From the IMG/VR virus record IMGVR_UViG_3300021139_002062: a stretch of DNA of 64,000 nucleotides; one strand, given 5' to 3'. Numbering within the stretch: the stretch's first letter is position 1; the number at the start of each line of letters is the position of its first letter. The notes under the pieces are model-generated. The model did not search any database, had not been told where the DNA came from, and saw nothing but the letters and a program-made list of their open reading frames with translations. Made by a program: the position numbers and the translations under genes. This DNA comes from a virus. Below are positions 5,323-48,494 of the stretch, one piece after another.

Positions 5323-5417
5323 CCGAATTTGTTATCATCGTCGCCATTGTGGTGGCTTGTTTTACAGCCATATCATGGCTGGTTAAAGAAATTATCGAGG
5401 GGTTAGACAATGATTAA
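5316..5417 (+). CDS. Small TM peptide (33 aa)
   Basis: MLAEFVIIVAIVVACFTAISWLVKEIIEGLDND. It overlaps both neighbouring genes. Confidence 0.4.
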   Translation: MLAEFVIIVAIVVACFTAISWLVKEIIEGLDND

Positions 5418-5616
5418 AGGATATAGAGAATTAACAGAAGTTGAACTTGACCTTATCAACAAGATTAAAGTTTTAGCAAATATTGCGGGTGATTCAATTG
5501 AGGCATTACAAGAATTAGATATTGTTGACCAACGATGGTTGGCTATTGCAAAAACAGATTTACAAAAAGGTTACATGGCTTTAGTTCGGGCAATTGCTAA
5601 ACCTGAATCATTTTAA
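5410..5616 (+). CDS. Hypothetical protein (68 aa)
   Basis: ORF in an operon context. Its stop TAA opens cassette copy 4. Confidence 0.6.
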   Translation: MIKGYRELTEVELDLINKIKVLANIAGDSIEALQELDIVDQRWLAIAKTDLQKGYMALVRAIAKPESF

Positions 5617-5635
5617 AGAAAGTGAGTGAAAAATG
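5614..5635 (+). promoter_or_regulatory. Junction cassette copy 4 (TAAAGAAAGTGAGTGAAAAATG)
   Basis: Same motif, ending in ATG 5633. Confidence 0.7.
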
Positions 5636-6046
5636 ACTAAACGCAGATTACTAGCCAACCGTATCATCACACCCGATGGTACCATGTTGCAATCCTACCA
5701 CCACCATGACTGTGTGACCTATACCGACGCCAACGGCATTGAGTACATGGTGGACGGTGGACTAGACTACCAACGGTGCATCATTAACGATGAGTTTCCC
5801 TATACCGATGCCAGTGTGTACACCGACGACCCACACCACCGCATCCGTGAGGCGTTTTGTTGGGGTTCGTATGGCAAAAAAGGCGACCAACCACTCAAGT
5901 GGATGCCACTCAACACCATGACCGACGAGCACATACAGGCCATATTGGACACCCAGCACCACATCCTCGAGCACATCCGTGAAGTCTTTGAGAACGAACA
6001 GACGTACAGAGCCTTCCTTAACATCCGCATAAAGGACGCAGAATGA
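5633..6046 (+). CDS. Hypothetical His-rich protein (137 aa)
   Basis: ORF behind cassette copy 4. Confidence 0.65.
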   Translation: MTKRRLLANRIITPDGTMLQSYHHHDCVTYTDANGIEYMVDGGLDYQRCIINDEFPYTDASVYTDDPHHRIREAFCWGSYGKKGDQPLKWMPLNTMTDEHIQAILDTQHHILEHIREVFENEQTYRAFLNIRIKDAE

Positions 6047-6390
6047 ACTTCTTATCTGATATCTGGGAGTGCATCAAAACAATGATTGGTGTACTCCTTG
6101 CCACCGCCTTTGTATTTGCAGTAGTGGCTCTTTTGTTTATTTTTGTGACTTGGATTTGTGGTGGGTTTGACCAAGATGCAAGAAATAAACGCCACCAACA
6201 GGAGGCTTACGACGCCACACCACACCTCTATTCCGAGGTAGATGGCTGTCAGGTATATCGGTGGAGAGATAACGGCCACTGGCACTACTTTACGAAGTGT
6301 GGTACAAAGGTAACAACAGAGAGCCACCATGGCGAACGGGTGGGTAAGTCAACCCGTGACGTTGCCGAAATTATCGAAACAACTAAATGA
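6043..6390 (+). CDS. Membrane-anchored hypothetical protein (115 aa)
   Basis: ATGA overlap. The N-terminal TM segment reads IGVLLATAFVFAVVALLFIFVTWI. Confidence 0.6.
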   Translation: MNFLSDIWECIKTMIGVLLATAFVFAVVALLFIFVTWICGGFDQDARNKRHQQEAYDATPHLYSEVDGCQVYRWRDNGHWHYFTKCGTKVTTESHHGERVGKSTRDVAEIIETTK

Positions 6391-6406
6391 AAGCGAGTGA
6401 GAAATG
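6388..6406 (+). promoter_or_regulatory. Junction cassette copy 5 (TGAAAGCGAGTGAGAAATG)
   Basis: Same core GAAAGCGAGTGAGAAATG. The upstream stop TGA is inside the motif. Confidence 0.7.
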
Positions 6407-6829
6407 AACAAAACTGATTTTGAAAGATATTGTGAAAATCTTAACCAACTTTGGAACACGCACATTAGTCGAATTTATGCTGAACAATTTTTTAATGCAG
6501 GAAAAGCAACAAAATGTGAACTAACCGATGAGGAAATGAAATTGCCAAGACACAACGGAAGTTTATACATCACCCATAATGAACACATTAATTACTATGT
6601 AACCGTAGATGAAATGATTGAATCGTGTCACCCTGCTGTGGATGACAAAGACTATTTTGTCAGCGAAGAAGATATGCAAAAGTGCATCGATACCAATGAA
6701 CTATGGGAACTGCAATGGTATCCTGACAGTCCTATTGGGTTCTATAAGGTCTGTGGGTCGAGTTTGGAGATAGTGTTGGCACGAGCATTAGAAATCGATG
6801 CAAAATTGAATGAAGATGGTGTTAAATGA
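6404..6829 (+). CDS. Hypothetical protein (141 aa)
   Basis: ORF behind cassette copy 5. Confidence 0.65.
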   Translation: MNKTDFERYCENLNQLWNTHISRIYAEQFFNAGKATKCELTDEEMKLPRHNGSLYITHNEHINYYVTVDEMIESCHPAVDDKDYFVSEEDMQKCIDTNELWELQWYPDSPIGFYKVCGSSLEIVLARALEIDAKLNEDGVK

Positions 6830-7243: not shown

Positions 7244-7431
7244 AAACAATTACAGAACACAATAGCCAAGTACATGAAAAAATAAAAATGGAGCGTAAAG
7301 CAAATGTGCTATGTGATGATTGCAAAGTAGAAATGTTTTACATAGACGTTAATATGGTTTTGGCTTCTTGCCCACCTAAAAAAACCGTTCAATGTCCACA
7401 GTGCCATAAACTTGACTACAAAATTATATAA
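7240..7431 (+). CDS. Zinc-ribbon protein (63 aa)
   Basis: Contains the pairs CDDC...CPQC. Confidence 0.6.
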   Translation: MKTITEHNSQVHEKIKMERKANVLCDDCKVEMFYIDVNMVLASCPPKKTVQCPQCHKLDYKII

Positions 7432-7450
7432 AGAAAGCGAGTGAGAGATG
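7429..7450 (+). promoter_or_regulatory. Junction cassette copy 8 (TAAAGAAAGCGAGTGAGAGATG)
   Basis: Same motif, ending in ATG 7448. Confidence 0.7.
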
Positions 7451-7633
7451 ATTGAAATTAAAAAGGTGCGTGGTGAAAACAAAATACAACCAATTTTTAT
7501 GCGCCAACATGAGTACGAGGCAATTATCAGTTTGGGTTATGACCCTAAGGAGTTCCTCAAAAAACTAATCCGACACACTGCCAAAAAGCGCCGTTGGGCT
7601 TGGTACTTCGAACAGAAAGGCAATCAACAATGA
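7448..7633 (+). CDS. Hypothetical basic protein (61 aa)
   Basis: ORF behind cassette copy 8. Confidence 0.6.
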   Translation: MIEIKKVRGENKIQPIFMRQHEYEAIISLGYDPKEFLKKLIRHTAKKRRWAWYFEQKGNQQ

Positions 7634-7965
7634 GTACCTATAAGCCAGACCTTTGGGAGGTCGTTCGTATCAGCAAAGACGGTGAGCACATTGACAAGGT
7701 GTACGCCTCGTGGCGTGGCGGTTATATCACACCCGACGAGTGGCGACTCAGCTCAGGCATCACCCAAGTTGTTGAGAATGATTCTCATTATCAAATACAC
7801 AACCACTCAGGGAGTATTTACCTCTGCCCCAAACAGGCTCGGGGCACCACCTTGTTCACCCAAGCCATATTGGAGCAACTCAAGGAGGGCATGGAGGAGA
7901 ACGGTGGCTGGATGGAGTTGATTGGTATTGAATTACTAGTAAAGGATGATCATGGTAAAAGTTAA
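7630..7965 (+). CDS. Hypothetical protein (111 aa)
   Basis: ATG 7630 is in an ATGA overlap. The track start at 7594 is less likely. Confidence 0.6.
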   Translation: MSTYKPDLWEVVRISKDGEHIDKVYASWRGGYITPDEWRLSSGITQVVENDSHYQIHNHSGSIYLCPKQARGTTLFTQAILEQLKEGMEENGGWMELIGIELLVKDDHGKS

Positions 7966-8239
7966 AGTAGAAGTGCCCGCAATTAAAGAAAAAGGCACAA
8001 AGAAAGTTGTAGCAGCTCCCTCCCAGGCATATAGCCACGATGAACTGGAGAAAAAAGAGCATCGTAAAAAGAACGAAGATAAGCGGGGGTTTCTTTTATC
8101 GGACGGTACTTTTGCCAATCGTAAGGAGGCGGCAAAAATTGCTGAAAAGAACAAGCAAGTCCCCAAAAGTGTTGGTAAAAAACTCCACTCCCATGATTTG
8201 CGTGAGGCAAACCATACAAAGAAAACGAGGGCAAAATGA
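7946..8239 (+). CDS. Hypothetical lysine-rich protein (97 aa)
   Basis: ORF with an ATGA overlap to the next gene. Confidence 0.6.
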   Translation: MIMVKVKVEVPAIKEKGTKKVVAAPSQAYSHDELEKKEHRKKNEDKRGFLLSDGTFANRKEAAKIAEKNKQVPKSVGKKLHSHDLREANHTKKTRAK

Positions 8240-8877
8240 CAACATCATCTTACTACAAAATCAATGCGGGTCATTTTGGATTGGAAATTGCCATTTGTTT
8301 TTCAGATGAGAGTTACCAACAAGTCGTCAAGGATTCGGGTATTACAGGGCGGCACCACGCTCTTGAAACTGGTATGGCAGAATCCCATTATATCGCCCAG
8401 GAAGGATCTTTAAATGCCTTAATGTGCATCGTATTTAACTATGAAGAGATGCGTAAATTGGACGATTTGGAACGATTGGGGGTTATTTACCATGAAGTAT
8501 CCCACACCACCACCCATGTGTTTCAGTACATTGGGGAAGATGAAACAAAAATCGGGGACGAATCAAGATCCTACTTAGGGGAACATCTTTTCAAACAAGT
8601 TGTTGCCGTTTATTTAAAAGAGGAAGAAAATCGCAAAAATGCTAGAAAAAGAAATCGAGAACTATCTAATAAAAAGAGTCAAGCAATCGTCGGGGCTCTG
8701 CTACAAATGGTTGGGCACGATAACGGGGGTACCGGACAGAATTGTAATACTGAACCAAAAAGTGATGTTTGTGGAGCTGAAGACACAAAAGGGAGTGCTG
8801 TCAGCCCGCCAAAAATTGATTTTCTCGGAGTTGGACAGCCAAGGATTTCCAGTAACAATTATCCGCAGCAAGTCTGA
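8236..8877 (+). CDS. HExxH-motif (putative metallopeptidase-like) protein; 3' end uncertain
   Basis: Contains IYHEVSHTTTH. The last 239 nt overlap the VRR-NUC gene in another frame. Confidence 0.45.
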   Translation: MTTSSYYKINAGHFGLEIAICFSDESYQQVVKDSGITGRHHALETGMAESHYIAQEGSLNALMCIVFNYEEMRKLDDLERLGVIYHEVSHTTTHVFQYIGEDETKIGDESRSYLGEHLFKQVVAVYLKEEENRKNARKRNRELSNKKSQAIVGALLQMVGHDNGGTGQNCNTEPKSDVCGAEDTKGSAVSPPKIDFLGVGQPRISSNNYPQQV

Positions 8878-8923
8878 CGTGGAGAACTTTATTGAAAATG
8901 CTAAAAAGAACACAACTACATAA
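8639..8923 (+). CDS. VRR-NUC domain nuclease
   Basis: 94 aa with GVPDRIV...VMFVELK (D...ExK) spacing typical of VRR-NUC. It lies next to SNF2, as in many phage replication modules. Confidence 0.8.
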   Translation: MLEKEIENYLIKRVKQSSGLCYKWLGTITGVPDRIVILNQKVMFVELKTQKGVLSARQKLIFSELDSQGFPVTIIRSKSDVENFIENAKKNTTT

Positions 8924-10226
8924 ATACCAAACTGATATAATAGATAAGGCCAAAACAACGCCAAACATAGGTTTGTTTTTAGAACCCGGCTTGGGTAAAA
9001 CAACAACGGCCTTAACAATTATTGCAGAACAGTTCAAAGGCACAACACTAATAGTGGCTCCTAAACGAGTGGCCGAAAGTGTATGGGAGCAAGAAATTAA
9101 AAAATGGGAGCATTTATGTCATTTAAAAGTTGCCAAGGTGATGGGATCACCGAAACAAAGAATCGACTCATTGTCGAGTATATCCGACGTGTATATTGTC
9201 AATTTAGAGAACTTGGTCTGGTTATTAGAGCAGAATCAAAAGTTCGACTACCTAATTTTAGACGAAAGTTCGAGATTCAAAGACCCATCAACAAAGAGGT
9301 TCAAGGCACTCAAGAAACACCTAAAGAATTTCAAAAGGCGAATTATCCTGACTGGTACCCCGACCCCGCAGAGCTTGCAAGACTTGTGGTCGCAAGTAGG
9401 TATTCTCGACCTAGGGGAAAGATTGGAGACGAGTCTGACGAAGTTTCGGGACAAGTACATGGACGCCGGTCAAAGGAATAGGCACACGGGCGTGGTTTAT
9501 AATTGGGTGCCAAAATCAACCAGTAGTTTACTTATACAAGAGAAAATAAACGACATTTGTTTTTCCTTGAAGGCGCAGGACTACCTGCAGTTACCAAAAT
9601 TAACCAAGTTGTACCACAAAATTACCATTGACAAAGGAGTGCGAACCCAGTATGACGAACTTAAAAGAGACATGGTCCTTGATACCGATACGGGGAACAT
9701 CACGGCTACAACAGCAGCGACACTGGCGGGCAAACTACTTCAGTTCACCTCGGGCACAGTTTATGGAGAAGACGGAGAAACACAAGAGATACACCGTGCT
9801 AAACTGGAATTCCTTGAAGAGATGTTGGAAGGCAGTTCTACCCCCACACTCATATTCTATCACTTCAAACACTCGTTATCGCGCCTGCGACTCTGTTTCC
9901 CCGAGGCTGTGGTGCTGGACGACGACAACATTGAGGCGTGGCGTAGCGGTAAGATTCGTGTGCTCCTTGCCCACCCACAGTCAGGCGGAATCGGGATCAA
10001 TTTACAGTGCAACATTGGCGAAACAGCCCAAACGGTGTGGTTTGATTTACCATGGAGTGCAGAGAATTACATCCAAGCCAACGCAAGGATTTACCGCCAA
10101 GGGCAGGAGAAACCGGTTATCATACACCATCTAGCCATTGAGAATACGGTTGATGAGCGGGTCATTGATGTATTAGAGGGTAAAATTAATTTACAAGACG
10201 CCGTATTGGAATCACTAAAATTATGA
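8898..10226 (+). CDS. SNF2-family DNA helicase / translocase
   Basis: Motif I EPGLGKT, motif II ILDESSRFK, and a helicase-C block (HPQSGGIGINLQ, QANARIYRQGQ). ATG 8898 is preferred over TTG 8892. Confidence 0.85.
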   Translation: MLKRTQLHKYQTDIIDKAKTTPNIGLFLEPGLGKTTTALTIIAEQFKGTTLIVAPKRVAESVWEQEIKKWEHLCHLKVAKVMGSPKQRIDSLSSISDVYIVNLENLVWLLEQNQKFDYLILDESSRFKDPSTKRFKALKKHLKNFKRRIILTGTPTPQSLQDLWSQVGILDLGERLETSLTKFRDKYMDAGQRNRHTGVVYNWVPKSTSSLLIQEKINDICFSLKAQDYLQLPKLTKLYHKITIDKGVRTQYDELKRDMVLDTDTGNITATTAATLAGKLLQFTSGTVYGEDGETQEIHRAKLEFLEEMLEGSSTPTLIFYHFKHSLSRLRLCFPEAVVLDDDNIEAWRSGKIRVLLAHPQSGGIGINLQCNIGETAQTVWFDLPWSAENYIQANARIYRQGQEKPVIIHHLAIENTVDERVIDVLEGKINLQDAVLESLKL

Positions 10227-10528
10227 CATTAAAAATACAAGCCGTAGTGCCACGATTATCGGATGAAGATCCAGATCCGTTGGAGCAAGATGAAACTGAC
10301 AATGTATCCTCCAGTAGTATTGAAAGTAGTGGGTGGTTGTTATGGGACAGTGAAGACATTGCTGACATAAAACGCCTTATTGAACATCGCATGCCAAAAA
10401 AACAACAGCAAATTTTTAATGCATTCTTACAAGGATTGTCGTATAATGACATTCATGTTAGTGAAAAGTATTGGCGTTACCATTTTTTGTTAGGCATTGA
10501 ATTTTTAAAAAAGGAATTAAAAATATGA
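10223..10528 (+). CDS. Acidic N-terminus plus sigma-70 region-4 / LuxR-like HTH protein (candidate transcription factor)
   Basis: MPKKQQQIFNAFLQGLSYNDIHVSEKYWRYHFLLGIEFLKKEL resembles the sigma region 4.2 / GerE pattern (recalled). Confidence 0.4.
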   Translation: MTLKIQAVVPRLSDEDPDPLEQDETDNVSSSSIESSGWLLWDSEDIADIKRLIEHRMPKKQQQIFNAFLQGLSYNDIHVSEKYWRYHFLLGIEFLKKELKI

Positions 10529-10701
10529 TATTTGTTATGGAGTATGAAAAGGGACACCCTTGGCGGTTTCATACGGTTATTAGTACGAAAGATGAGATTA
10601 ATCCTAGTGAGTTTAAGTACCCGATTAAAAACTTATTTTTCTGTGAAACCATTGACGAGGCTATAATGGTGATTGACGAACTAACGGAGTTAAATAAATG
10701 A
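10525..10701 (+). CDS. Hypothetical protein (58 aa)
   Basis: Hand-translated ORF, ATGA-coupled on both sides. Confidence 0.5.
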   Translation: MIFVMEYEKGHPWRFHTVISTKDEINPSEFKYPIKNLFFCETIDEAIMVIDELTELNK

Positions 10702-10919
10702 ATGACCCAGTAAACAGCCCAAGTCATTATCGGCAACACCCTTCGGGGGTGGAGTGTATTCAAATTACCGAACACATGGGGTTCAATTTAGGGAATGCCA
10801 TTAAGTACATTTGGCGTGCAGATTTTAAAAACAACGCCATTGAGGACTTAAAGAAGGCAGAGTTTTATGTTAAGCGGGAAATTATTCGACGTAGCAAACT
10901 AGGGGAGTGCGGAAAATGA
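10698..10919 (+). CDS. DUF3310-family protein
   Basis: VNSPSHY...GVECIQI...GNAIKYIWRA..K...EDLKKAEFY is the hallmark DUF3310 pattern (recalled). Confidence 0.75.
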   Translation: MNDPVNSPSHYRQHPSGVECIQITEHMGFNLGNAIKYIWRADFKNNAIEDLKKAEFYVKREIIRRSKLGECGK

Positions 10920-11146
10920 TATTGAAGTTAAAAGATGCTTTTGCTGATGAAATTGTTCGGCATAATTTAATGGACAACTACATACGGTTAAAGGCTGAAT
11001 TAAAAACCAAAAAGGACATTCACGAAGACGACATTGTTGCTTATAAAAAAGTCGTAAAGGCGATTGAAGTGCTTGGTACATGGTACTTCACTGACTTTGA
11101 AGGCGACGTTAAAGAGTATAAGAAACTAATGGAGGAAAACAAATGA
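10916..11146 (+). CDS. Hypothetical protein (76 aa)
   Basis: ATG 10916 is in an ATGA overlap. Confidence 0.6.
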   Translation: MILKLKDAFADEIVRHNLMDNYIRLKAELKTKKDIHEDDIVAYKKVVKAIEVLGTWYFTDFEGDVKEYKKLMEENK

Positions 11147-37388: not shown

Positions 37389-37979
37389 TTAAAATAGTTC
37401 CCACCAAGAGGTAAAGCTACCCGTTGGCCCATAAGCTGCTGTTGCGGAATAAGTGGCTCCTGGCGGAACTATAATCGTAACAGTTCCAGCACCGGTTCCA
37501 CCTGCAACAACATAATTTTGTGCTATTGCAGAACCATTAATGTAAAAAATTACTCCACCATCAAGTGCTGATTGACATACAGAAACCATAATGGGATAAG
37601 TAAAGTTATTTGTGTAAGTTGTTCCAAATGCTCTTGAGCCACCTACATTCTGCCAAGTTTCGCCGTTTAAGCCTAATCCTTTCACCGTTGGTGCTGGAGT
37701 TCCAGAATAACCACTAAACCCAGAATAACCACTAGCACCAAACCCAGAGTAGCCAGAATATCCACTAATACCGCTGCCAGAATAGCCAGAGTAACCCGAA
37801 TAGCCACTTGCTCCCGCTGTTTGGAATTGGGTCACTACGCCCGAAATGTTTTTATAGAACAGTTTGCCGTCTGGCACATTAATTGCCAGTTCACCTTGTT
37901 GTAAATTACTTGCCGAGGGAACTGCCCCTGGGGTTGTGGTGTTGTATAGTTGTATGATTGTGTAACCAGATTGTGGCAT
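37389..37979 (-). CDS. Short tail fibre protein with (G-Y/F-S)n collagen-like tract
   Basis: Fibre-type N-terminus LQQGELAINVPDGKLFYKN, with a GYS tract at residues 56-93 (nt 37701-37814). Confidence 0.65.
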   Translation of the reverse strand: MPQSGYTIIQLYNTTTPGAVPSASNLQQGELAINVPDGKLFYKNISGVVTQFQTAGASGYSGYSGYSGSGISGYSGYSGFGASGYSGFSGYSGTPAPTVKGLGLNGETWQNVGGSRAFGTTYTNNFTYPIMVSVCQSALDGGVIFYINGSAIAQNYVVAGGTGAGTVTIIVPPGATYSATAAYGPTGSFTSWWELF

Positions 37980-37982
37980 GGT

Positions 37983-38417
37983 TTATTCCTTTAAGTACTT
38001 AATAATTTCAGTGGGTAATACAAATCGCTCGTCGCTGTGTTCGGTGGCTTCCCACCATAAAAACTGATTGGCCACTAAGTAAGACCGGCCTTTTAGTAGG
38101 TTGATGTTCTCTGGATGACCAAAGATTAACGGGTCTGACGGCCCCCACAACACAATCCCCTTCTTCCCCTCGTCCCAGGCTAGGTGCTGGAAAAAACTAT
38201 CCACCCCAATCCAAGTGCGACATGTTTGAATCAGTTGGCGTAGTTCGTCAATGGGTAGGTTTTTCTTAAAATTCTCTACTAACTGCTCTTCACCCGCAAC
38301 CCCTACTTGGACAATTGGCTCGTCAATTAGTTCAATGAGCTCTTTCCAGTACGGGTAGTTCTTTGGGTTGTGTTTACCCGTTCTGAGGGTCTGTGCATAC
38401 GGTGCAATAATAATCAT
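37983..38417 (-). CDS. GT9 (heptosyltransferase)-like half-domain protein (144 aa)
   Basis: The IGVDSFFQHLA...VLWGPSDP pattern matches the C-terminal Rossmann half of GT9 enzymes (recalled). Confidence 0.55.
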   Translation of the reverse strand: MIIIAPYAQTLRTGKHNPKNYPYWKELIELIDEPIVQVGVAGEEQLVENFKKNLPIDELRQLIQTCRTWIGVDSFFQHLAWDEGKKGIVLWGPSDPLIFGHPENINLLKGRSYLVANQFLWWEATEHSDERFVLPTEIIKYLKE

Positions 38418-39385
38418 AGGTACATCTTTTTAAAGGCGTTTTCGAGGCTGTCTTTCCAGTTCCATTGGTTCATCTTTTTGTAGATGTTCCACTGGTCAAT
38501 ATCCCCAAACAACTGGTGTGCCTTTTCAATTGACTCTCCAGGGATAATGTCTGGGTAGCAACTAAACACCATGGGGTTTTTGATTAATGGCAATACTCTC
38601 TTAAATACAATGTGGTCACCACGACCACAGTTTAGTACCACAATGGTCTTATCTCGGTGTGCTAAGACGTTATTAAAAATCCGCTCATCGTGCTCATACA
38701 TCGCTTGGTTGGCTTCCATACGAATGCCCCCTTGCGGGTTCTTCATGTGCCAAGTTATGGCGTTAGGTATTGCTATTACCTCATAGCCTTTTTGGTACAA
38801 ACCGTAAGTAAACAGTGTCTCTTCTCGGTGTGCTACTCGGGACAAACCCAAGTTGTAGTCATGTACACCCGCGCGGTACAAAAAGCTACAGTGTAAATGC
38901 TCCACATAACGGATTTGATCAATTTTGCCCCACTGGATGTTTGGCTCGTCGTTAATGTTACGAATTTTGCCAGATACTTCCGTGGTGTCCGGCATATAGG
39001 GTGGCGTTAGTATGGATCCACCCACAGCACCAACGTGCATATCCGCATAAGCCAATAAATACTCTAGCACATTGGGTTCTGGTACGGCGTCATCGTCTAC
39101 GCGCCAAACCCAATCAAAGCCAGGTTCTAGGTTGGCTTGTTGGTGGATGTGGTGCTGACCTTTTTTGTCCGCAAACCGCCACTCCCAAGGTATATCCTTT
39201 GCGTTCAGTATGTTGAATAGGTGTTGGTACACTAGGCTATTACGCACATCCTCTGGCTCGTCGTTATCATCAAACACAATCAACTTATCGGGTAGGCGTG
39301 TTTGGTTGGCAATGGCACTGAGCACTGAGGGCAGTGTGGTGTAATACCGACCGCGGGTTGCTACGGAACAGAGTACTTTATCCAC
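38414..39385 (-). CDS. Family 2 glycosyltransferase
   Basis: CSVATRGR...LIVFDDNDEP...WRVDDD (DxD). Confidence 0.7.
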   Translation of the reverse strand: MDKVLCSVATRGRYYTTLPSVLSAIANQTRLPDKLIVFDDNDEPEDVRNSLVYQHLFNILNAKDIPWEWRFADKKGQHHIHQQANLEPGFDWVWRVDDDAVPEPNVLEYLLAYADMHVGAVGGSILTPPYMPDTTEVSGKIRNINDEPNIQWGKIDQIRYVEHLHCSFLYRAGVHDYNLGLSRVAHREETLFTYGLYQKGYEVIAIPNAITWHMKNPQGGIRMEANQAMYEHDERIFNNVLAHRDKTIVVLNCGRGDHIVFKRVLPLIKNPMVFSCYPDIIPGESIEKAHQLFGDIDQWNIYKKMNQWNWKDSLENAFKKMYL

Positions 39386-40604
39386 GGTCCCACCTACAAA
39401 TCATGAGGTTGCTTGGGTTAGTAGGTGTGACTTCTTGCATCACATCTGATATATCGCCGTTGTGGTTGATGTATGCAAACTGGAAGCCTGGAAAATCCTT
39501 TTCAGTCAAACCGTGCAACTTGTGGTGCTCGCCCCAAAAACCTTTTGGCTCGTTGTGTGGCACGGTGATTAAAAGGCGTTTGCAGTGGTTTTTAAGCCTC
39601 TCCACGACCTTTAAACCGTTGTCAAGGTGCTCTATTACTTCGAAGGCTATAATCGTGTCATGAATGTCCAAATCAACTTTATTAATATCAAAACTAACAA
39701 ATAAATTATTTTGACCGTTCCATTTTTGTTCTATGGCTGTTTGGATAATATTTGAATCATAATCCACACCAAAATAATTAATATTGTCTGGGAAAAACTG
39801 TCTACCGTATCCTGTTGAGCAACCAATCTCTAAAACATCGTCACCTAAGAGGTTCTTAGCAGCCCACTCGTAGCGTTGTCTTTCTCTAGGAAACACTAGG
39901 TCGCCTTTGAGGAACACCGCACGCTCGTAGTTGTTGGACAGCATGAAGCGGTAGTGGTCCATGTTGTACTTCTTGGCTAACTTCAGTTCGTTTTGGTAGA
40001 AGGTATTCTTCCAATTTTGCACTAGGGTCTCGTCGTGTACCGTGCCCTCTGCTGCGTGGTAGATTGGGAAGTCGCCTCGAAAGCCCACGTCCACCAACCT
40101 AAACCCAGCTAGTTCGGCTCGGTGACAGAAGTCAATATCCTCACAGCCACCGACTCCAAACCGCTCATCCAGATGACCAATCGTGTCAAAGACACGTTTT
40201 TGAATCATCACACAAAAGAACACGCCAAAGTGGCTCTTGGTGATGGGTGAGTACTGTGTCAGTACGGCACTAATATCGGCGCCCGCATCCAATCTGTCTA
40301 GCCAATTGTCGCCAAGGATAATGGTGTCATTATTTAACAAGACAATCTTATCGGCCCTAGCTTCACAAATACCCTCATTGGTTGCTTCGGCAAACCCTAT
40401 TGGAAGGCCGTTCCACACAGAAATTATGTAAGGCATTCTGGTGTGCAATTCTTCTAAGTACTCACTGGTGGTGTCGGTGCACCCATTGGCGGAAATCACT
40501 AACTCCACCTCGTTCATGTTGGTGTGCTTGAGAATGGACTCCACACAGGGTTTGAGGTACTTTTCGCAGTTGTTGTACGTTGGTATTACAATGCTGTATT
40601 TCAT
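39378..40604 (-). CDS. Bifunctional GT2 glycosyltransferase / SAM-dependent methyltransferase
   Basis: N-terminus YSIVIPTYNN...LLNNDT. C-terminus VLEIGCSTGYG...IIAFEVIEHL. Confidence 0.75.
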   Translation of the reverse strand: MKYSIVIPTYNNCEKYLKPCVESILKHTNMNEVELVISANGCTDTTSEYLEELHTRMPYIISVWNGLPIGFAEATNEGICEARADKIVLLNNDTIILGDNWLDRLDAGADISAVLTQYSPITKSHFGVFFCVMIQKRVFDTIGHLDERFGVGGCEDIDFCHRAELAGFRLVDVGFRGDFPIYHAAEGTVHDETLVQNWKNTFYQNELKLAKKYNMDHYRFMLSNNYERAVFLKGDLVFPRERQRYEWAAKNLLGDDVLEIGCSTGYGRQFFPDNINYFGVDYDSNIIQTAIEQKWNGQNNLFVSFDINKVDLDIHDTIIAFEVIEHLDNGLKVVERLKNHCKRLLITVPHNEPKGFWGEHHKLHGLTEKDFPGFQFAYINHNGDISDVMQEVTPTNPSNLMICRWDRG

Positions 40605-40655
40605 AATGCTCCTTAGGTTTGTAAAAACCTATTGTAGCGTAATTTGTCTAAGCCG

Positions 40656-40985
40656 TCAAGCCCAAGTCCTTATCGGGTTACGAGGTTCAACAATAAAAGG
40701 CTTTAAAGGCTCAATGTCCTCATCATCCAACAAACGAATATTCACGCCATAATTAGGTGGTGGATAAGGTATTGGCACATAGTCCTCTGGGGTTGGGATT
40801 GGCGGTCTTTGATAAACCGTTCCAATCACGCTGATATTTTGATAATTAGGAATCATATAAGATTCAGTCTTGACCACATCAGTCGGCTTCCCATCGGCAT
40901 CTAGTTCGTACTCAACAGGCACAATGGTATAAAGGATTGGTAGCGATTGGGCTTCGTCTGTAAAACTAAGGCATAAGTCTTGCAT
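40656..40985 (-). CDS. Hypothetical Pro-rich protein (109 aa)
   Basis: ORF 1 nt downstream of the fibre gene. Confidence 0.5.
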   Translation of the reverse strand: MQDLCLSFTDEAQSLPILYTIVPVEYELDADGKPTDVVKTESYMIPNYQNISVIGTVYQRPPIPTPEDYVPIPYPPPNYGVNIRLLDDEDIEPLKPFIVEPRNPIRTWA

Positions 40986-40986
40986 A

Positions 40987-42840
40987 TTAGCTTCCTGTGA
41001 GTGCTTGGAGTTGAGCAGAGGTTGTAATTGCTTGAGGATAAAACGCTGCTTTTTTTATCCATCCTGTCCAAAATCCATTAGCAGGTAATCCTCTGCCAAT
41101 ATTTAATTGTGAAACTATTGGGATTAATCCTGTTGTAACCGCAGTTCCTACAGTTCCATCTCTTGCTTGTACAAAATATGAATTTGAGTAAACACAAGCA
41201 GTTTTGAATAATGTATTTGCAGTTAAAGTCCCAATACTTGCCGATAAAATAACTGTTGAATTATTAGTATTTACAAAATATTTAGTCCCTTGATATGCAA
41301 GTTCTATAACATTATTGTTGGTGTTATCATTTGCACTTAATACTCCTTTTGCAACTCCGCTTCCATCATTTACTACGCTAGTTGGAGATATTGCTTCTGC
41401 GTAAAAAGTACCTTGTGACTGATTAAACCAACTACTAAAATTCGTGCCTGTCATTGTTGCTACATCCGCAGCCCTTGTTACTTGGCTAGAAGTAGTGGCT
41501 ATGTAAGAGGTAGGAAATGCGAGGGCTTCTAATTGTGCTCCCCAAATGTAAATGCCTGAATAGCCATTTCCGGTGTAGGAAGATGCTCTAACAGATGTCC
41601 CTGTTGTAATTGGACACAAATATACACCTGAAGTTGCCGCAGCAAATGTATTGGTTGTTTGAATACGATACCATCCATTACCAACAGAATTTATTGAAGC
41701 AGAGGTATAAGTTCCGGCAGTTACTGTTCCATTGACTAAATCAAAGTTTGCGTAATTTGTAGTTAATCCACCACCAAACATTAATTGGATAAATTGAATA
41801 CCATTGTATTTTACATAATAAGTAAAAGTGTATGCTTGTGCAGTTGCTACGACTGTCCCAATAATATTGGTAAATGCTGCCGATGCGTTTGGAACTAAGG
41901 TAAATACTGTTTGTGTGCCATCAGGTGCAATATTGGAAGCACTTGTTAAAGTAGCATTTGTTAAAGTCCACGCAGCATTACTAAATGTTTGACTATAAGT
42001 CAGTAAATTAGTCGAACTCTGCTCAATCAATAATCCCAAACTTTCCCCTGTAACAGGATTAAAATCAAATCTAGGAGTATTAATCGGTGCAGTTTGTAAA
42101 GTTGGTATGTAGTTAGTAATTGCTGAGGTAGTTGTGGCGTTGTAGGCGGTTGCTGAGGACCTTTGTTCTAGTTGTGCTCCCCAAATATATGCACCGCTTG
42201 TGCCATCTCCTGCAAATGCAGGATTTAATCCATAAGAACCATTTGAAAAAGATGATGTTGCTGAAAAATTTATACCCAATTCAGCAGTTGTCCCTGTCAA
42301 AGAACCTGCAATAGAAACTCTATACCATCCATTACCGACAGATGTTATTGATGAACCTAAATAAGTTGCACCAGCACCTTGATTTGTTGATGATATAGTT
42401 CCCAATGAAAGGTCTATATTAACTGCCACCCAAACTGTTGAACCACTACCATCTAAAGTAACAGTTACATAATTATATCCATTTGCTTTTAAATAAATAG
42501 AATTTGTATAAGCAATTCCTGATTGAATGGTTATATATGCAGTTCTTGAACAATAATGTTGAACATTAGAAGTTGAAGGAATTAAAGCGTTTGCTGTCGT
42601 TGTGCCATCAGGTGCAGTAAAAGTTCCTGATGCAGTAGTTCCACTTTTTGTCCATGCAGAATTTGTGAAATCTTGTGAATAAGTTAGTAAATTCTGCTCT
42701 GCCAATGTCGCAGTATGTCCATCATAATACACCGCAGTTGTGGAACGAGTGAATGTAACTCGTGGATCGAGGGTTTGACTTTCAGCGAAGTCTAAAAGTA
42801 GCGAGGGACGCGTTGAAGGATAGTTTGCAGATATGCTCAT
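40987..42840 (-). CDS. Tail fibre / receptor-binding protein with internally duplicated lectin-like domain (617 aa)
   Basis: Two copies of NLLTYSQ.F.N.AWT...APDGT...GNGWYR...YIWGAQLE. Confidence 0.6.
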   Translation of the reverse strand: MSISANYPSTRPSLLLDFAESQTLDPRVTFTRSTTAVYYDGHTATLAEQNLLTYSQDFTNSAWTKSGTTASGTFTAPDGTTTANALIPSTSNVQHYCSRTAYITIQSGIAYTNSIYLKANGYNYVTVTLDGSGSTVWVAVNIDLSLGTISSTNQGAGATYLGSSITSVGNGWYRVSIAGSLTGTTAELGINFSATSSFSNGSYGLNPAFAGDGTSGAYIWGAQLEQRSSATAYNATTTSAITNYIPTLQTAPINTPRFDFNPVTGESLGLLIEQSSTNLLTYSQTFSNAAWTLTNATLTSASNIAPDGTQTVFTLVPNASAAFTNIIGTVVATAQAYTFTYYVKYNGIQFIQLMFGGGLTTNYANFDLVNGTVTAGTYTSASINSVGNGWYRIQTTNTFAAATSGVYLCPITTGTSVRASSYTGNGYSGIYIWGAQLEALAFPTSYIATTSSQVTRAADVATMTGTNFSSWFNQSQGTFYAEAISPTSVVNDGSGVAKGVLSANDNTNNNVIELAYQGTKYFVNTNNSTVILSASIGTLTANTLFKTACVYSNSYFVQARDGTVGTAVTTGLIPIVSQLNIGRGLPANGFWTGWIKKAAFYPQAITTSAQLQALTGS

Positions 42841-42956
42841 AGCGACTTCCAGTTATGATAAACGACTGCAATATAAACAATGACTAAAAACACTAAAGCG
42901 AGTGGTATACCAATCAAGGCATTGAAGAATAAAAAAGGTGAGGGTGAGAATATATA

Positions 42957-44804
42957 TCATTGTGATTCCAATACCATATCATAAACAGAAAGAGATACCC
43001 AATCTGTTGCAGTTGCAGTTGATAAATAAAATCCTTGTGTGACTGCTGATGTTATGGTCACATTTATTTGGTTTAAATAGCCACTAGGCATATTCCAAAC
43101 AATAGATCCATTATTTTGATTTACCGCAATATAAAGATTGTTTGAAGCACTTATAGAAGTTGTGCTTGTTTGTATTGCCTGAATATAACCAGTTACAAAT
43201 GTGTTATTCCCATACCCAATAACTTTAGCACCCGCTGAATTATTATTTCCAATAACTCCAAATACTTTTAACAAATTATTAGCAGCAATAGTATTTGCAG
43301 GTAATATTATATTTGGGCCGATAACTGTGCCAGTCACGCCAGTATATGCTCCCACACCTGTTGTAACTAAAGTTGGTGTTGTTGGATAAGTTGGTTGTCC
43401 AGTTGTGTATTGATTAGAATAAACTAATCCAGATGTGGATGAAGAAAGTGTGACATAATACCACCCAGCACTAGAACCAGTCCAAGCACCTGCTGGAAAA
43501 TACATATAACATTTTGTCGGACTCCCATTATTTAACAAATAAGTGGTTATTGCAGTCCCTAAAGTTAAAACCCCAGTAGTCGCAGCAATTGAGCCTGTTG
43601 GTGCAATTACAAAAGGGATAGAACCGGTCAATAAAGATACTGTATTATTTACAGGCGTCCAAATTGTTCCATTACTTTTCCACAAACTGCCATTAGTGCC
43701 GACATCTGATACTTGATAAACTTGCCCAGTAGAAGAACCTGCCGAAGGCAAATTAGCAAATGTTACCGATTTAGGTGTTAATACACCACTAATATTTACA
43801 GCCTTCGCATCTTGCCAAGCCATTGTTCCTAAATACTGATTAAGTGGGATTTGATTGGCTTGTGTTCCAATATCTTTCTGATTGACGTTTGAATAACCAC
43901 CTTCAAGCAGGTTGGTAACGCTAAGGGTTTGTGTTCCTGCGTTGTAAGTAAAGCCACTGTTACCGGCAAACGATCCGCCGCTGTTGTACTGAACGTAGGT
44001 ATTAGAACCCGCCGCAGAGCCTGCAGTGCCAGATAGTCCAGAGTAGCCAGAGAACCCAGAGTAGCCAGAAAAGCTACTGTACCCTGAATAGCCTGAATAG
44101 CCAGAAAAGCTACTGTACCCCGATGTGCCAGAGTAACCAGAAAATCCACTATAGCCAGACACGCCAGATCCGCTGTAACCCGACACACCCGAGCCACTAT
44201 AACCCGATATGCCACTGTAGCCAGAGATACCGCTGTAACCTGATGTGCCACTATAGCCAGAGATACCCGAGTAGCCCGATACGCCGCTAAAACCACCCTG
44301 TCCGCTGTATCCAGAGATACCACTATACCCAGAGTAGCCAGAGAGTCCAGAAACGCCCTGTACGCCGCTATAACCCGATACGCCACTGTACCCAGAGTAC
44401 CCCGAGTAACCAGAAATACCCGAGCCACTATAGCCCGACTTGCCACTGAAACCCGAATAGCCACTATACCCCGAGTAGCCAGAGATACCCGAAATGCCAC
44501 TATACCCCGATGGTCCACTGTAGCCACTAATACCCGAATAGCCACTAAACCCTGAGTAACCCGAATAACCAGACCAGCCAGAAATTGGGCCAAGTACCTG
44601 CGTAGAGCCGTCACTGTAGTACACCACCAAGTTGCCGTTGGATGGGATGTACTGCATGTTGGTAATCAGTTTGCCAGGCGACGCCGCATTGGCAATTTGT
44701 GATACGGTGACCTGTTTTGTTACGCCATTTTGGACGACGACAGTTTGCTCTTGACCGGTGAGGTTAATAGCAATAGGTAGTTGGGTTATTGACTGATCTG
44801 CCAT
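42957..44804 (-). CDS. Long tail fibre with about 64 (Gly-X-Ser) triplets, mostly G-Y-S (615 aa)
   Basis: Residues 75-266 are an almost uninterrupted SGYSGYSGFSG... tract. The C-terminal half is globular and T/S/N-rich. Confidence 0.7.
   Translation of the reverse strand: MADQSITQLPIAINLTGQEQTVVVQNGVTKQVTVSQIANAASPGKLITNMQYIPSNGNLVVYYSDGSTQVLGPISGWSGYSGYSGFSGYSGISGYSGPSGYSGISGISGYSGYSGYSGFSGKSGYSGSGISGYSGYSGYSGVSGYSGVQGVSGLSGYSGYSGISGYSGQGGFSGVSGYSGISGYSGTSGYSGISGYSGISGYSGSGVSGYSGSGVSGYSGFSGYSGTSGYSSFSGYSGYSGYSSFSGYSGFSGYSGLSGTAGSAAGSNTYVQYNSGGSFAGNSGFTYNAGTQTLSVTNLLEGGYSNVNQKDIGTQANQIPLNQYLGTMAWQDAKAVNISGVLTPKSVTFANLPSAGSSTGQVYQVSDVGTNGSLWKSNGTIWTPVNNTVSLLTGSIPFVIAPTGSIAATTGVLTLGTAITTYLLNNGSPTKCYMYFPAGAWTGSSAGWYYVTLSSSTSGLVYSNQYTTGQPTYPTTPTLVTTGVGAYTGVTGTVIGPNIILPANTIAANNLLKVFGVIGNNNSAGAKVIGYGNNTFVTGYIQAIQTSTTSISASNNLYIAVNQNNGSIVWNMPSGYLNQINVTITSAVTQGFYLSTATATDWVSLSVYDMVLESQ
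44007..44582 (-). repeat. 9-bp-periodic coding tandem repeat (GYS tract)
   Basis: Read directly. A related tract lies at 37701-37814. Confidence 0.85.
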
Positions 44805-44807
44805 GGT

Positions 44808-45434
44808 TTAGGTATACGTAAATGCGCCGTGTAGTGTGGATGTGCCGAAGGTTGAAATTACTGCTAAATCAACAAGGCCAGTAATTGGGTACGCTTGTGT
44901 TACTGCCGTCATTTCAGTTGGGCTGTTAATACTAAAACTTGTTACGTTTGCACCACCCAATGTGACATTCGTGATGTTCACAAAGTTGGTGCCATGAATG
45001 GTTATGTTAGTACCGCCTGCACTACTGCCAGTGTTTGGTGCAACTGAATAGATAATTGGCGTGGTGGACGGTGGTAAAAACTGGTAAATAGAATCTAAGT
45101 TCAAATCGCCCTGTGGTGAAGTACCTGGGGCAACACCCGTAACAAAAAACGAGTTGTTGTTTTGAAACCCTGTCTGAGTTTTAAGCTCATTGCCACCAAC
45201 TGGGCCGGTAGCAATATTCACGTCGGGTCTTGGGAACCGCAAGGCAATATTTTCTGTCTGCCTTGCCGGGGATCTCCATGGATCCCATTGGTCTAAGTCA
45301 TCCTTACATACTCGCATGCCAGGTGCATTTGGATCGGGCATCAAATCGGTATACGCAAACTTCCTATTACACCTATCACAAATAGCTACAGATAAAACTG
45401 AATTACCCGAAGTATCAAGGTAAACTGGGGGCAT
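44808..45434 (-). CDS. Fibre-associated protein with N-terminal Cys pair and C-terminal IPT/TIG-like domain (208 aa)
   Basis: CDRCNRKF...VCKDD, and SVAPNTGSSAGGTNITIHGTNF..ITNVTLGG. Confidence 0.5.
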   Translation of the reverse strand: MPPVYLDTSGNSVLSVAICDRCNRKFAYTDLMPDPNAPGMRVCKDDLDQWDPWRSPARQTENIALRFPRPDVNIATGPVGGNELKTQTGFQNNNSFFVTGVAPGTSPQGDLNLDSIYQFLPPSTTPIIYSVAPNTGSSAGGTNITIHGTNFVNITNVTLGGANVTSFSINSPTEMTAVTQAYPITGLVDLAVISTFGTSTLHGAFTYT

Positions 45435-46003
45435 TATAGCTCTCCATTCTTATAGCGTTTTTTGAACGTCCTAATATCAATATTAAAATGTTTTGCTGCC
45501 GCTTGTTGCGAAACAAATTCCATATCACCCACAACAACTTTTTTACCAATCCCTTTTTTATTCCCAGAATTTTTAGAAAGTTTTTTTCTCGTTTCTTCTG
45601 AATGATGCCAACCATAGCCTCTTGTTGCAATTCCTTTTTTAGTATTTGATACTTTAATTGCTATTTTAGGGTCACACATTGGATTATCCTTGCCATATCT
45701 AACATTAGGCATCCCCCCACCAGGGGCTATATTCCAACCAATTTCCTTATTTGGACGTAATTTATGTTCAAATTCTAAACAATATAATTTATCTGAAATA
45801 AGCACAATAGAAAAAATAATATTTTCCCAACCATACTTTTTTGAAGCATTTGTAATAATTGGGTTATTGTGTGTTGATTGGTTCGCTTGGGCTTTATGTT
45901 TTGCAAAACGCTTTTTTGTATTATTAGTCACCCCAACATATCCCTGACTAAAAATATCAGTGTGGTTTTTGTGATGTATCCAATAAACAGTATATTCTTG
46001 CAC
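45434..46003 (-). mobile_element. GIY-YIG homing endonuclease (free-standing), paralog 2
   Basis: YTVYWI...GYVGVT...RFAKHK...E...GWNIAPGG. It clearly parallels the ORF at 32919-33581. Confidence 0.8.
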
Positions 46004-47394: not shown

Positions 47395-47480
47395 GTTTGT
47401 TTCCTTATCTTAGTGGATACCCCAAGTTGTCTCTAAGTCGCCTACTGGGAAGGAGCAGTAGTCAAAATGGGATGAATCTT

Positions 47481-47522
47481 CCTATATACACTAATGCAAA
47501 AAATAAGAGAAATCCGCCCTAA
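47481..47522 (-). promoter_or_regulatory. Promoter-like motif P4
   Basis: TAGGGCG-GATTTCTCTTATTTTTT-GCATTAGT-GTATAT-AGG, immediately after the capsid terminator. Confidence 0.6.
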
Positions 47523-47527
47523 ATAAC

Positions 47528-47558
47528 AAAAAAGCCACTCTTGTGAAGTGGCTTTTTT
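47528..47558. terminator. Bidirectional rho-independent terminator after the capsid gene
   Basis: A6-GCCACT-CTTGTGA-AGTGGC-T6. Confidence 0.8.
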
Positions 47559-47576
47559 GATTTTTGCTGCGTTGGA

Positions 47577-48494
47577 TTAGAGGCCAGGTGTACCGTAAAT
47601 ATTACGGGAATCGTGCCAACCAGTCGCATAACGCTCAGTAGCCTTATAGCGCATACTGTCAGTCTCAAAATCGCCCTCCATCGATTTCTCCATAGGACGA
47701 CGCATAACGAGCATTAAGCCGTTTTCTGCATCTGTCTGGATCCACCAGGCTTTGCTTGAGCTCAAACGAGTAACAACGTGTGCGCCTTTTGGCAACATAC
47801 CTGTTGACTTGATTGGGTTCAAATCATTGTCAGCTGTACCAGAACGGAGAACAGACTTGAGGATAACCTCTGCCTGGAACTCAAGTGCTGGAGGAACAAC
47901 TAACTGCTCTGCCTTCAAGCGAATACGCTTACCGTTGTTGTCAACAGCAGAACGAATCTGAATCAACATCTGTTCAACAGAAGTTTGGCTCAAAGAAGCT
48001 GCAGTAGATAACTGGTTAGAGTAAGAACCGCCGTTGGCGATTGGGTGAGCTGTGTTGATCAACGTTACGCCGTCACCGCCTACATAACCAGATGTGAAAG
48101 CAAAGTTCAAAATGTTTGCACATAATGTTTCTTTAGTTTCAATCATGGACTGAGCTAAGTGTTTAGCGAATGTAGAACCGATACGAATATGGTCGCCGTC
48201 TTCCATCAAGACTTTGGTTAAAGCATATGCTAAACCATAGATTTGATAGATGAAACGTGTGATATACAATGTACCGCCCTGATCATAACTGACAGGAGTT
48301 CCGTCAGGCATTGCAGGAGCAGCATTCATACCATATAGCATCACTTCTTCGTGATAGTTACGTGGAATACCTTGGATTTCTTCTACAAAACCCTTCCATT
48401 CATCGGAGCGCTGTTCATAAACGCCATCAAAGACTTCGTTGATAATCGGTTCGACTACCGCACGAAAGTCCGTACTACGCATTGGGGTTGCCAT
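47577..48494 (-). CDS. Major capsid protein (HK97-fold type)
   Basis: 305 aa. The gene has a strong terminator downstream and sits after the scaffold. The sequence pattern is typical of HK97-like coat proteins (recalled). Confidence 0.7.
   Translation of the reverse strand: MATPMRSTDFRAVVEPIINEVFDGVYEQRSDEWKGFVEEIQGIPRNYHEEVMLYGMNAAPAMPDGTPVSYDQGGTLYITRFIYQIYGLAYALTKVLMEDGDHIRIGSTFAKHLAQSMIETKETLCANILNFAFTSGYVGGDGVTLINTAHPIANGGSYSNQLSTAASLSQTSVEQMLIQIRSAVDNNGKRIRLKAEQLVVPPALEFQAEVILKSVLRSGTADNDLNPIKSTGMLPKGAHVVTRLSSSKAWWIQTDAENGLMLVMRRPMEKSMEGDFETDSMRYKATERYATGWHDSRNIYGTPGL

Follow-up and report, generated by a model that had tools for sequence, protein, structure and literature searches.

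In the exosporium of Bacillus anthracis, the protein BclA carries a collagen-like (GPT)n region that is O-glycosylated on Thr by dedicated glycosyltransferases (GTs) and capped by 2-O-methylated anthrose (PMC6222408, PMC7793302). Glycosylation stands in for hydroxyproline in collagen of the BclA type (PMC11923368). The locus described here recalls BclA in its trimeric collagen-like filament, predicted in this case, and in the hydroxy amino acid at position Y of the Gly-X-Y (G-X-Y) triplet. It lies in the virus record IMGVR_UViG_3300021139_002062, a stretch of 64,000 nucleotides (nt) that was analysed as a whole and is called the window below. The locus consists of five co-oriented genes on the minus strand. 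Two encode fibres with Gly-Φ-Ser (G-Φ-S) repeats, where Φ is a hydrophobic or aromatic residue (Tyr, Phe, Ile or Ala in the stalk repeats). The other three, which form the cassette, encode a GT2 enzyme fused to a methyltransferase (MT), a second GT2 enzyme, and a small protein, GT9C, that corresponds to half of a GT9 enzyme. The region is best explained as a portable module of collagen-like fibre genes and a dedicated soluble glycosylation cassette, whose enzymes probably glycosylate the fibres.

BclA is a cellular, Gram-positive protein with Pro at X and Thr at Y, whereas the repeats of the window are viral and Pro-free, with an aromatic or aliphatic residue at X and Ser at Y. Here the enzyme genes are also physically joined to that of the proposed substrate, and the likeness to BclA is drawn at the level of function. 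A viral counterpart is provided by Mimivirus, which encodes collagen-like virion proteins together with collagen glycosyltransferases (L230, R699) (PMC9546862, PMC12279948). R699 and human COLGALT1 are among the GT-A structural neighbours of a model of the second GT2, a similarity that is generic to the GT-A fold. The Mimivirus enzymes, like those of animals, have hydroxylysine as their acceptor and depend on a lysyl hydroxylase, whereas the phage tracts contain 0.11% Lys and the island showed no hydroxylase gene.

Mycobacteriophages, according to the papers that cite the work on them, also encode GTs that decorate virion proteins, and the GT genes of the window share with theirs a location in or next to the block of structural genes. 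In those citing papers, the glycans of actinophages are placed on the C-termini of capsid and tail-tube proteins, whereas the target proposed here is the stalk of a collagen-like fibre, in phages of Gram-negative-type hosts. A further comparison is offered by TibC and AAH of the BAHT family. These cytoplasmic GT-B enzymes resemble WaaC, have a reduced N-lobe and heavily glycosylate a repetitive, elongated adhesin at many of its Ser residues (PMC4358343). An 'Aah/TibC' phage protein is found among the distant neighbours in BFVD (rank 44). However, the half domain of the window is partnered with a GT-A enzyme, and there is no evidence for a β-barrel, an iron finger or a dodecamer. A profile search of the PDB returned WaaC, WaaF and GT9 entries and not TibC, and no Cys4 motif was noted. 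By the features tested, the region belongs to none of the BclA, Mimivirus, mycobacteriophage or TibC/AAH families. Searches of the available literature, in which the phage name 'P19250A' was not combined with glycosylation, turned up no account of collagen-like phage fibres with a linked glycosyltransferase cassette.

Pairing of the cassette with collagen-like fibres

A megablast search of the island against 50,697 phage records gave no match. At the protein level, Methylophilaceae phage P19250A (KX815270; locus L003) is the single cultured phage in which the three enzymes were all found, at 63-68% identity; its record annotates them as hypothetical. P19250A is a 38.7-kb lambda-like siphovirus with a backbone unrelated to that of the window. 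Its cassette, made up of a standalone MT, GT2 and GT9C, starts just downstream of gp23 (7391-10996), a 1201-amino-acid (aa) protein that follows the gene for host-specificity protein J. This protein is annotated as 'tail length tape-measure protein' and is made up largely of G-[Y/F/W/I/A]-S triplets. In the same record, gp21 (4046-6823), annotated as 'PE family protein', is a Gly-rich fibre-like protein. Both labels are annotation errors.

A scan of IMG/VR with GT2 yielded 58 loci, of which the 47 with at least 1.5 kb of upstream sequence are informative (counts were made by hand from the table of loci). GT2 and GT9C are always adjacent in these GT2-selected loci, and have an MT gene, a GT2-MT fusion or neither upstream of them. 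A G-[YFW]-S collagen open reading frame (ORF) lies upstream on the same strand in 40 of the 47 informative loci, and the usual distance from its end to the cassette is 38 nt. In a further two, a collagen ORF is immediately downstream, which brings the pairing to 42/47 among viral contigs that were picked by GT2 homology alone. Over all sets of loci, the upstream collagen ORF is present in 59/66. The pairing recurs on independent backbones, namely those of P19250A, of the window lineage (related to Caulobacter phage RW), and of the diverged loci L189 and L148, where GT2 is 39-40% identical and the cassette is still flanked by collagen ORFs.

The association also runs in the opposite direction. 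A degenerate DNA pattern for (G-Y/F-S)5 retrieved 120 stretches, 40 of which hold a true G-Φ-S ORF of at least 20 triplets, and the cassette is present in 22 of these 40 collagen loci. In all 18 negatives, the sequence downstream is shorter than 3 kb; most of them run off the stretch retrieved, and L123, with 2.9 kb, is the only one that is reasonably informative. L123, from the 494-kb contig IMGVR_UViG_3300005681_000225, and L124 (GVMAG-M-3300022752-15) have G-Φ-S-type collagen ORFs on contigs of giant-virus size. The GT2/GT9C cassette was not seen in the stretches available of either, and the repeat type may extend beyond tailed phages.

At their C-termini, the fibres that accompany the cassette have domains of 16 unrelated clusters, and at their N-termini of 12, while the cassette itself keeps 57-71% identity; it follows the repeat, and not the ends of the fibre. 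This bears on a different explanation, in which the cassette alters a glycan of the host surface (lipopolysaccharide (LPS) core, O-antigen or capsule) and so blocks superinfection or the re-adsorption of progeny to lysed cells. Its linkage to fibre genes would then reflect the altered glycan being the receptor of the fibre. GTs that sit within phage fibre modules are by default given a role of this kind (PMC7029224). Nevertheless, it is disfavoured because the C-terminal, receptor-binding types of the linked fibres vary, and the sole constant neighbour of the cassette is the G-Φ-S repeat. Isolate bacterial genomes and prophages also lack the family: in a set of 185,579 species genomes, its relatives occur on only 12 contigs, all from metagenome-assembled genomes.

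The cassette can be followed on a single backbone as well. The original prediction had suggested comparing related genomes for the presence or absence of the island, and both states are found. In the sister genome MW202545, a TIG-domain protein is followed by two adjacent fibre genes that have the anchors of fibre 1 and fibre 2. The bodies of these fibres are non-collagen (one is annotated as a tail fibre, the other as an endosialidase-type spike), and there is no cassette. In L005, L006, L021, L045 and L181, the same anchors carry collagen stalks, and the cassette lies exactly between them. Relatives swap the whole fibre-plus-cassette block, which does not fit simple excision between the two tracts. 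The tracts had been described as direct nucleotide repeats that could mediate loss or exchange of the island. They are repeats only in a degenerate, codon-level sense, with a 9-nt periodicity and 61-82% identity per 33 nt, and with a longest exact match of 18 nt they are poor substrates for recombination.

These loci also bear on the possibility that the enzymes glycosylate other virion proteins, such as the capsid, the tail tube or a 617-aa spike, and that the collagen linkage is indirect, arising from a shared hypervariable fibre region. Mycobacteriophages offer a precedent, in which the C-termini of capsid and tail-tube proteins carry the glycans (Freeman 2023, as cited in PMC12619734), and in the window the cassette comes after the spike gene and not after a collagen fibre. 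In most loci, however, only about 38 nt separate the end of the collagen gene from the cassette, and nothing intervenes. The spike and the 109-aa protein next to it (p109) are a pair that, among the relatives compared, only the window has; the spike finds no counterpart in L005, L181, L006 or L021. P19250A has the same pairing, although its capsid and tail genes bear no relation to those of the window. Co-location in a variable region also fails to explain a specificity for G-Φ-S that holds in both directions. Modification of other virion proteins is thus quite unlikely to account for the cassette.

Composition of the collagen-like tracts

The (Gly-Tyr/Phe/Ile-Ser)n tract of fibre 1 matches Pfam Collagen (PF01391) at 2e-22, with 79 bits against a cut-off of 27.2. 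Its stalk comprises 55 G-X-Y triplets, with Ser at Y in 49 and no Asp, Glu or Arg at all. Uninterrupted G-X-Y runs, each of at least six triplets, extend over aa 76-129, 132-206, 214-231 and 247-264. In fibre 2 the tract has runs of only five and four triplets and gives no Pfam hit. The anchor of fibre 1 is common to the relatives, and its C-terminal domain forms a singleton homology cluster. In 14 loci a conserved anchor like that of fibre 2 comes directly after the cassette, and fibre 2 has PHROG tail-fibre matches. Both tracts are read as collagen-like repeats, for which the triple helix itself is a prediction.

Across 11,101 triplets from cassette-linked fibres, Y is Ser in 79.7% and Thr in 4.2%, and the X position is shared mainly between Tyr (25%), Phe (19%), Ile (16%) and Ala (12%). 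From locus to locus, Tyr at X varies between 2% and 47%, whereas Ser at Y is steady at 79-90%, whichever accessory enzymes are present. This difference shows that Tyr is dispensable and makes Ser the constant partner of the constant enzyme core. Tyr, which had been named alongside Ser as an obvious acceptor, is therefore unlikely to be one. Co-variation of triplet composition with the accessory enzymes (MT, extra GT2) gave no clear signal.

Collagens from outside the animals are stabilised by Pro, by K-G-E/D salt bridges or by glycosylated Thr at Y, and the peptide (Gly-Pro-Thr)10 folds only when its Thr is galactosylated (PMC11923368). The sequence-encoded part of this code, that is, Pro or hydroxyproline and K-G-E/D salt bridges, is not found in the G-Φ-S tracts. 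Residues of the linked stalks are Pro in 0.8%, Lys in 0.11% and Arg in 0.1% of cases, and K-G-E/D accounts for 0.03% of 10,520 triplets. Since a G-Φ-S helix would lack sequence-encoded stabilisers and would expose a hydrophobic stripe, we infer that O-glycosylation of Ser is the missing stabiliser, as a prediction from composition.

Architecture of the cassette enzymes

The three enzymes had been called as a GT9-like half domain, a GT2 and a GT2-methyltransferase fusion, and Pfam confirms each call. The fusion matches Glycos_transf_2 with 53 bits (cut-off 23.3), Methyltransf_12 with 32.6 (cut-off 30) and Methyltransf_23 with 30.4 (cut-off 27), and its translation contains the S-adenosylmethionine (SAM) motif LEIGCSTGYG. 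The second GT2 matches Glycos_transf_2 (PF00535) with 31.9 bits (cut-off 23.3) and has the invariant motifs DDND (D39-D40) and DDD (D97-D98-D99), which place it among the GT-A enzymes. Its homologues are numerous, with 2377 matches in public metagenomes, and an identical copy of the protein is on record in a metagenomic contig of 66,238 nt. GT9C matches Glyco_transf_9 with 27.6 bits (cut-off 22) over profile positions 172-218 only. No transmembrane-like segment was found in any of the three enzymes (maximum Kyte-Doolittle value at most 1.03).

The family profile of GT9C aligns to residues 180-295 of WaaC, its ADP-heptose-binding lobe, and an alignment to 2H1F shows the donor-binding motifs. 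All three motifs of the GT9 donor-binding C-lobe that were looked for (K-x-W/Y-P, D-S/T-G/F..H and S/T-D-P) are present, and the invariant residues in an alignment of fusion proteins are K342, D396, H401 and S417-D418-P419. With 144 aa, against about 320-350 aa for a two-lobed GT-B enzyme, and with NCBIfam heptosyltransferase scores of 17-20 bits against cut-offs of 170-437, GT9C is not a full LPS heptosyltransferase. The second GT2 also extends beyond its GT-A domain, by an 80-aa segment with an invariant G-x-G-D motif in a β-loop-α element, which might serve as a GT9-type N-lobe with its catalytic Asp. A profile of this extension together with GT9C aligned only the WaaC C-lobe in the PDB and had no sequence match to a GT9 N-lobe, and a phmmer search of GT2 against PDB sequences gave no useful match.

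An exhaustive search with HMMER and GT9C returned 597 clusters at 50% identity, most of them standalone proteins of about 150-160 aa and some fused to longer proteins. Several single-chain fusions unite the enzymes of the cassette: P0133, P0189 and P0218 are GT2+GT9C, P0141 is GT2+GT2+GT9C, P0148 is MT+GT2+GT9C, and P0195 (1011 aa) is GT2-MT-GT2-GT9C, in the same order as the genes of the window. P0170 (1700 aa) and P0245 (1220 aa) are larger proteins still, in which the unit is one of several enzyme parts. Further fusion partners of GT9C are methyltransferases of the FkbM type and of other types, other GT2 enzymes and a pyruvyl transferase. As strings of methyltransferase and glycosyltransferase domains, P0170, P0245 and P0195 look like protein-level 'glycan assembly lines'; their sequences appear AT-rich.

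GT2 with its extension and GT9C are predicted to work as one unit, because they form a single polypeptide in some metagenomic relatives. The assignment of the second gene to GT2 thus stands, with the addition that its extension would belong functionally with the GT9 half. The architecture would be an unusual one, in which a GT-A domain is joined to half of a GT-B. In split GT-B enzymes such as Alg13/Alg14, the donor-binding C-lobe is a small protein of its own, and a second protein has to join it to provide the acceptor side. The putative partner segment here differs in that it is only about 80 aa long and is fused to a complete GT-A enzyme. AlphaFold modelled GT2 alone with a predicted local distance difference test score (pLDDT) of 86.6, and this model has hundreds of GT-A structural matches. 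For the fusion P0133, the pLDDT is 90.5 and the predicted template modelling score (pTM) is 0.82. In this model the extension forms three β-strands that alternate with helices and is followed by a linker, a Rossmann lobe and a terminal helix. A fold search of BFVD matched a standalone GT9C orthologue with a target-normalised TM-score of 0.97, and the RfaF- and TibC-like matches are ambiguous.

For a role on the host surface, the enzymes themselves offer the resemblance of the GT9C half to the LPS heptosyltransferase WaaC and a weak PHROG match of the N-terminal GT2 domain to GtrB-like O-antigen conversion (3.8e-5). The low heptosyltransferase scores count against it, as does the absence of a membrane component of the Gtr type from a cassette whose enzymes have no transmembrane segment. 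The cassette lies just upstream of the lysis genes. The nine ORFs scanned from the early module include replication genes of the phage itself, and no integrase match was found among the 10 large ORFs scanned, nine of which are from the early arm; the genome is apparently virulent. The region is consequently not assigned to the Gtr-type (GtrA/GtrB/GtrC) seroconversion systems, and modification of host glycans is an unlikely function of the cassette.

A model for fibre glycosylation

In the explanation proposed here, fibre 1 is the main substrate. Late in infection, the core enzyme (GT2 with GT9C) would O-glycosylate Ser at position Y of the G-X-Y triplets in the cytoplasm, using nucleotide sugars of the host; ADP-heptose is one guess as the donor for the GT9-like half. 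The accessory GT2 would add a further sugar, and the methyltransferase would O-methylate the glycan. The resulting dense coat of glycans would keep the triple helix stable and soluble, although this helix lacks proline and salt bridges and, left bare, would present an aromatic stripe. It could also protect the fibre or aid adhesion. Shielding or adhesion, the function first suggested, remains one possible role, and the composition points at least as strongly to a stabilising and solubilising one.

Glycosylation of the fibres is favoured because of the two-way association, the presence and absence of the cassette on one backbone, and the domain fusions. These observations strengthen the original prediction of glycosylated, methyl-capped tracts, which in its biochemistry is a prediction still. 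The genomic setting is compatible with it, in that enzymes without transmembrane segments share a motif-delimited unit with fibre and lysis genes.

Several points weigh against this explanation, for which the evidence consists of association and inference. In five informative loci (L009, L036, L038, L055 and L058) the cassette is present, but the available sequence contains no G-Φ-S collagen gene. Two of these, L055 and L058, have a collagen-like ORF of GNA/GAA/GNP triplets several kb upstream and a GT2-MT-type protein of 664-667 aa, a variant that may reflect a different substrate chemistry. Many contigs are near-duplicates, and the counts overstate the number of independent events. The GT-A fold fits polysaccharide synthases and protein O-glycosyltransferases alike, and so gives no clue to the acceptor. 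GT-A matches swamped the fold searches with either model, and the reading of extension plus GT9C as a two-lobed GT-B is a tentative one. In the window, fibre 1 is set apart from the cassette by the spike gene and a small ORF. Ahead of the GT2-MT gene, a gap of 50 nt (about 38 nt at the equivalent place in most other loci) contains a sigma-70-like match, TTGACG-17-TACAAT (10/12 positions; 40659-40631 on the minus strand), followed by an AAGGAG ribosome-binding site. Separate expression of the cassette is therefore conceivable, and the site would also suit a role on the host surface. The scans for sigma-70 sites and terminators gave match counts not above those in shuffled sequences, so that single matches are leads only. 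Taking both sides together, we consider glycosylation of the G-Φ-S fibres by the cassette enzymes to be probable.

A bolder version sets G-Φ-S fibres apart as a viral collagen class of their own, able to fold or stay soluble only through dense Ser-O-glycosylation by a chimeric enzyme inherited together with them (GT-A and a split GT-B half, plus an optional extra GT and methyltransferase). This version is put forward tentatively, as a possibility that we would not yet bet on.

Genomic context and transcription

The five genes of the island were all recovered on the minus strand where the original prediction had placed them (Table 1). After the capsid terminator, the order of transcription is two small virion-type ORFs, a GIY-YIG endonuclease, the TIG-domain protein and fibre 1. 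These are followed by the spike, p109, GT2-MT, GT2, GT9C, fibre 2 and a group of small ORFs, some of which, read from the sequence alone, we take to be spanin-like and lysozyme-like. Within the cassette the genes are tightly packed: GT2-MT and GT2 overlap by 8 nt and GT2 and GT9C by 4 nt (ATGA), and a gap of 3 nt separates GT9C from fibre 2.

Table 1. Positions of the fibre and cassette genes and of neighbouring features in the window
Feature	Position	Strand	Description
Major capsid protein	47577-48494	-	
Hairpin terminator	47527-47559	-	Strong; 14-bp stem and T-run; directly past the capsid gene, upstream of P4
P4 motif	47460-47510	-	Fourth copy in transcription order; core TTTGCATTAGT at 47490-47500
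GIY-YIG ORF	45434-46003	-	Homing endonuclease type, free-standing; between a virion gene and the TIG-domain gene
TIG protein, 208 aa	44808-45434	-	Conserved N-terminal region; C-terminal IPT/TIG domain (Pfam TIG, 2.5e-11)
Fibre 1, 615 aa	42957-44804	-	Anchor aa 1-71; stalk aa 76-264 (nt 44013-44579); C-terminal domain of 351 aa
Spike/fibre, 617 aa	40987-42840	-	Two tandem GTA head-spike-fibre domains
p109, 109 aa	40656-40985	-	Downstream of the spike; matches solely PHROGs of unknown function
GT2-MT fusion	39378-40604	-	GT2 (GT-A) aa 1 to about 205; class-I SAM methyltransferase aa about 206-408
GT2 (core enzyme, part 1)	38414-39385	-	GT-A domain and 80-aa Rossmann-like extension, aa 244-323 (nt 38417-38656)
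GT9C (core enzyme, part 2), 144 aa	37983-38417	-	Corresponds to the nucleotide-sugar-binding C-lobe of GT9 heptosyltransferases
Fibre 2, 196 aa	37389-37979	-	Anchor aa 1-50; G-Φ-S tract aa 56-95 (nt 37695-37814); C-terminal tail-fibre-like domain
Acidic protein, 64 aa	37166-37360	-	Between fibre 2 and the lysis genes
Low-complexity protein, 263 aa	34822-35613	-	Rich in Lys, Gly and Ser; directly behind motif copy 5

The promoter-like motif P4, proposed in the original prediction, proves to be a genuine element. It is one of a series of elements of about 45 nt with the form TAGGGCG[G/A]A-N11-12-TTTTTTGCATTAGT-N3-ATA[G/T]G, of which the window contains seven exact core copies. Six are in intergenic gaps of the minus strand (57396, 54660, 51460, 47490, 35665 and 28573), and the seventh is on the plus (early) strand at 11860. 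When one mismatch is allowed there are nine matches, compared with 2.7 in shuffled sequences, and none of 100 shuffles reached nine. There are no copies between 47490, just past the capsid terminator, and 35665, and for this reason the fibres, the GT cassette and the lysis genes are taken to form one motif-delimited unit. The expected late expression of the cassette together with virion genes is consistent with this map. The motif would thus split the late arm into units, and the spacing of its hexamers, unlike that of standard sigma-70 promoters, suggests a phage-specific or modified polymerase specificity.

The same map bears on whether the cassette might modify phage DNA, through sugar hypermodification of bases, or have another non-structural role, for instance in anti-defence. 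Glucosylation of DNA is a common activity of phage GTs, and a GT-A fold says nothing about the acceptor. The early arm encodes a primase, a helicase, an exonuclease, a ribonucleotide reductase, an RNA ligase and a DNA polymerase. The cassette, however, sits in a late structural unit on the opposite strand, far from these genes of replication and nucleotide metabolism, and is strictly associated with one type of structural protein; PADLOC gave no match for it. A function of this sort is very improbable.

Through its capsid protein (67-68% aa similarity), the phage groups with Caulobacter phages RW, GB2A, RLK and KcrB and with an uncultured spring-water phage. The TIG protein directly precedes fibre 1 in all backbone relatives (synteny in L002, L005, L006, L021, L045 and L181). 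The 617-aa spike had been described as lectin-like, a label that gives way to two stretches matching the NCBIfam GTA head-spike-fibre domain (NF048003, 8e-74). It also matches PHROG 5939 'tail protein' (9e-99), and its gene has an internal tandem duplication with a period of about 650 nt. The GIY-YIG ORF looks like a recent mobile insertion, because L005 and L175 have no homologue over the matching interval. The gene of the 64-aa protein downstream of fibre 2, which is highly acidic, contains 21-nt tandem repeats that encode VDTVEE-like units. The 263-aa low-complexity protein could be an internal or DNA-associated virion protein.

Significance of the module

GTs of phage fibre regions are routinely dismissed as modifiers of host LPS or of DNA, and proven virion glycosylation is limited to actinophages (PMC12619734). 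If the enzymes of this cassette do act on the fibres, virion glycosylation would extend to abundant freshwater phages of Gram-negative-type hosts, and would be of a new kind. It would also explain why long, proline-free and uncharged collagen-like stalks exist at all. The idea can be tested with a cultured phage-host pair, P19250A on Methylophilaceae strain IMCC19250, and the module is small enough for reconstitution in E. coli. Practical interest would lie in programmable glycosylated protein fibres, and in a glycan-dependent host range or immune recognition of phages. Should G-Φ-S fibres form a distinct class, the locus would represent a self-contained, horizontally mobile cassette of a fibre plus its maturation enzymes, widespread in freshwater phages, and a third, virus-specific way to stabilise collagen without hydroxyproline.

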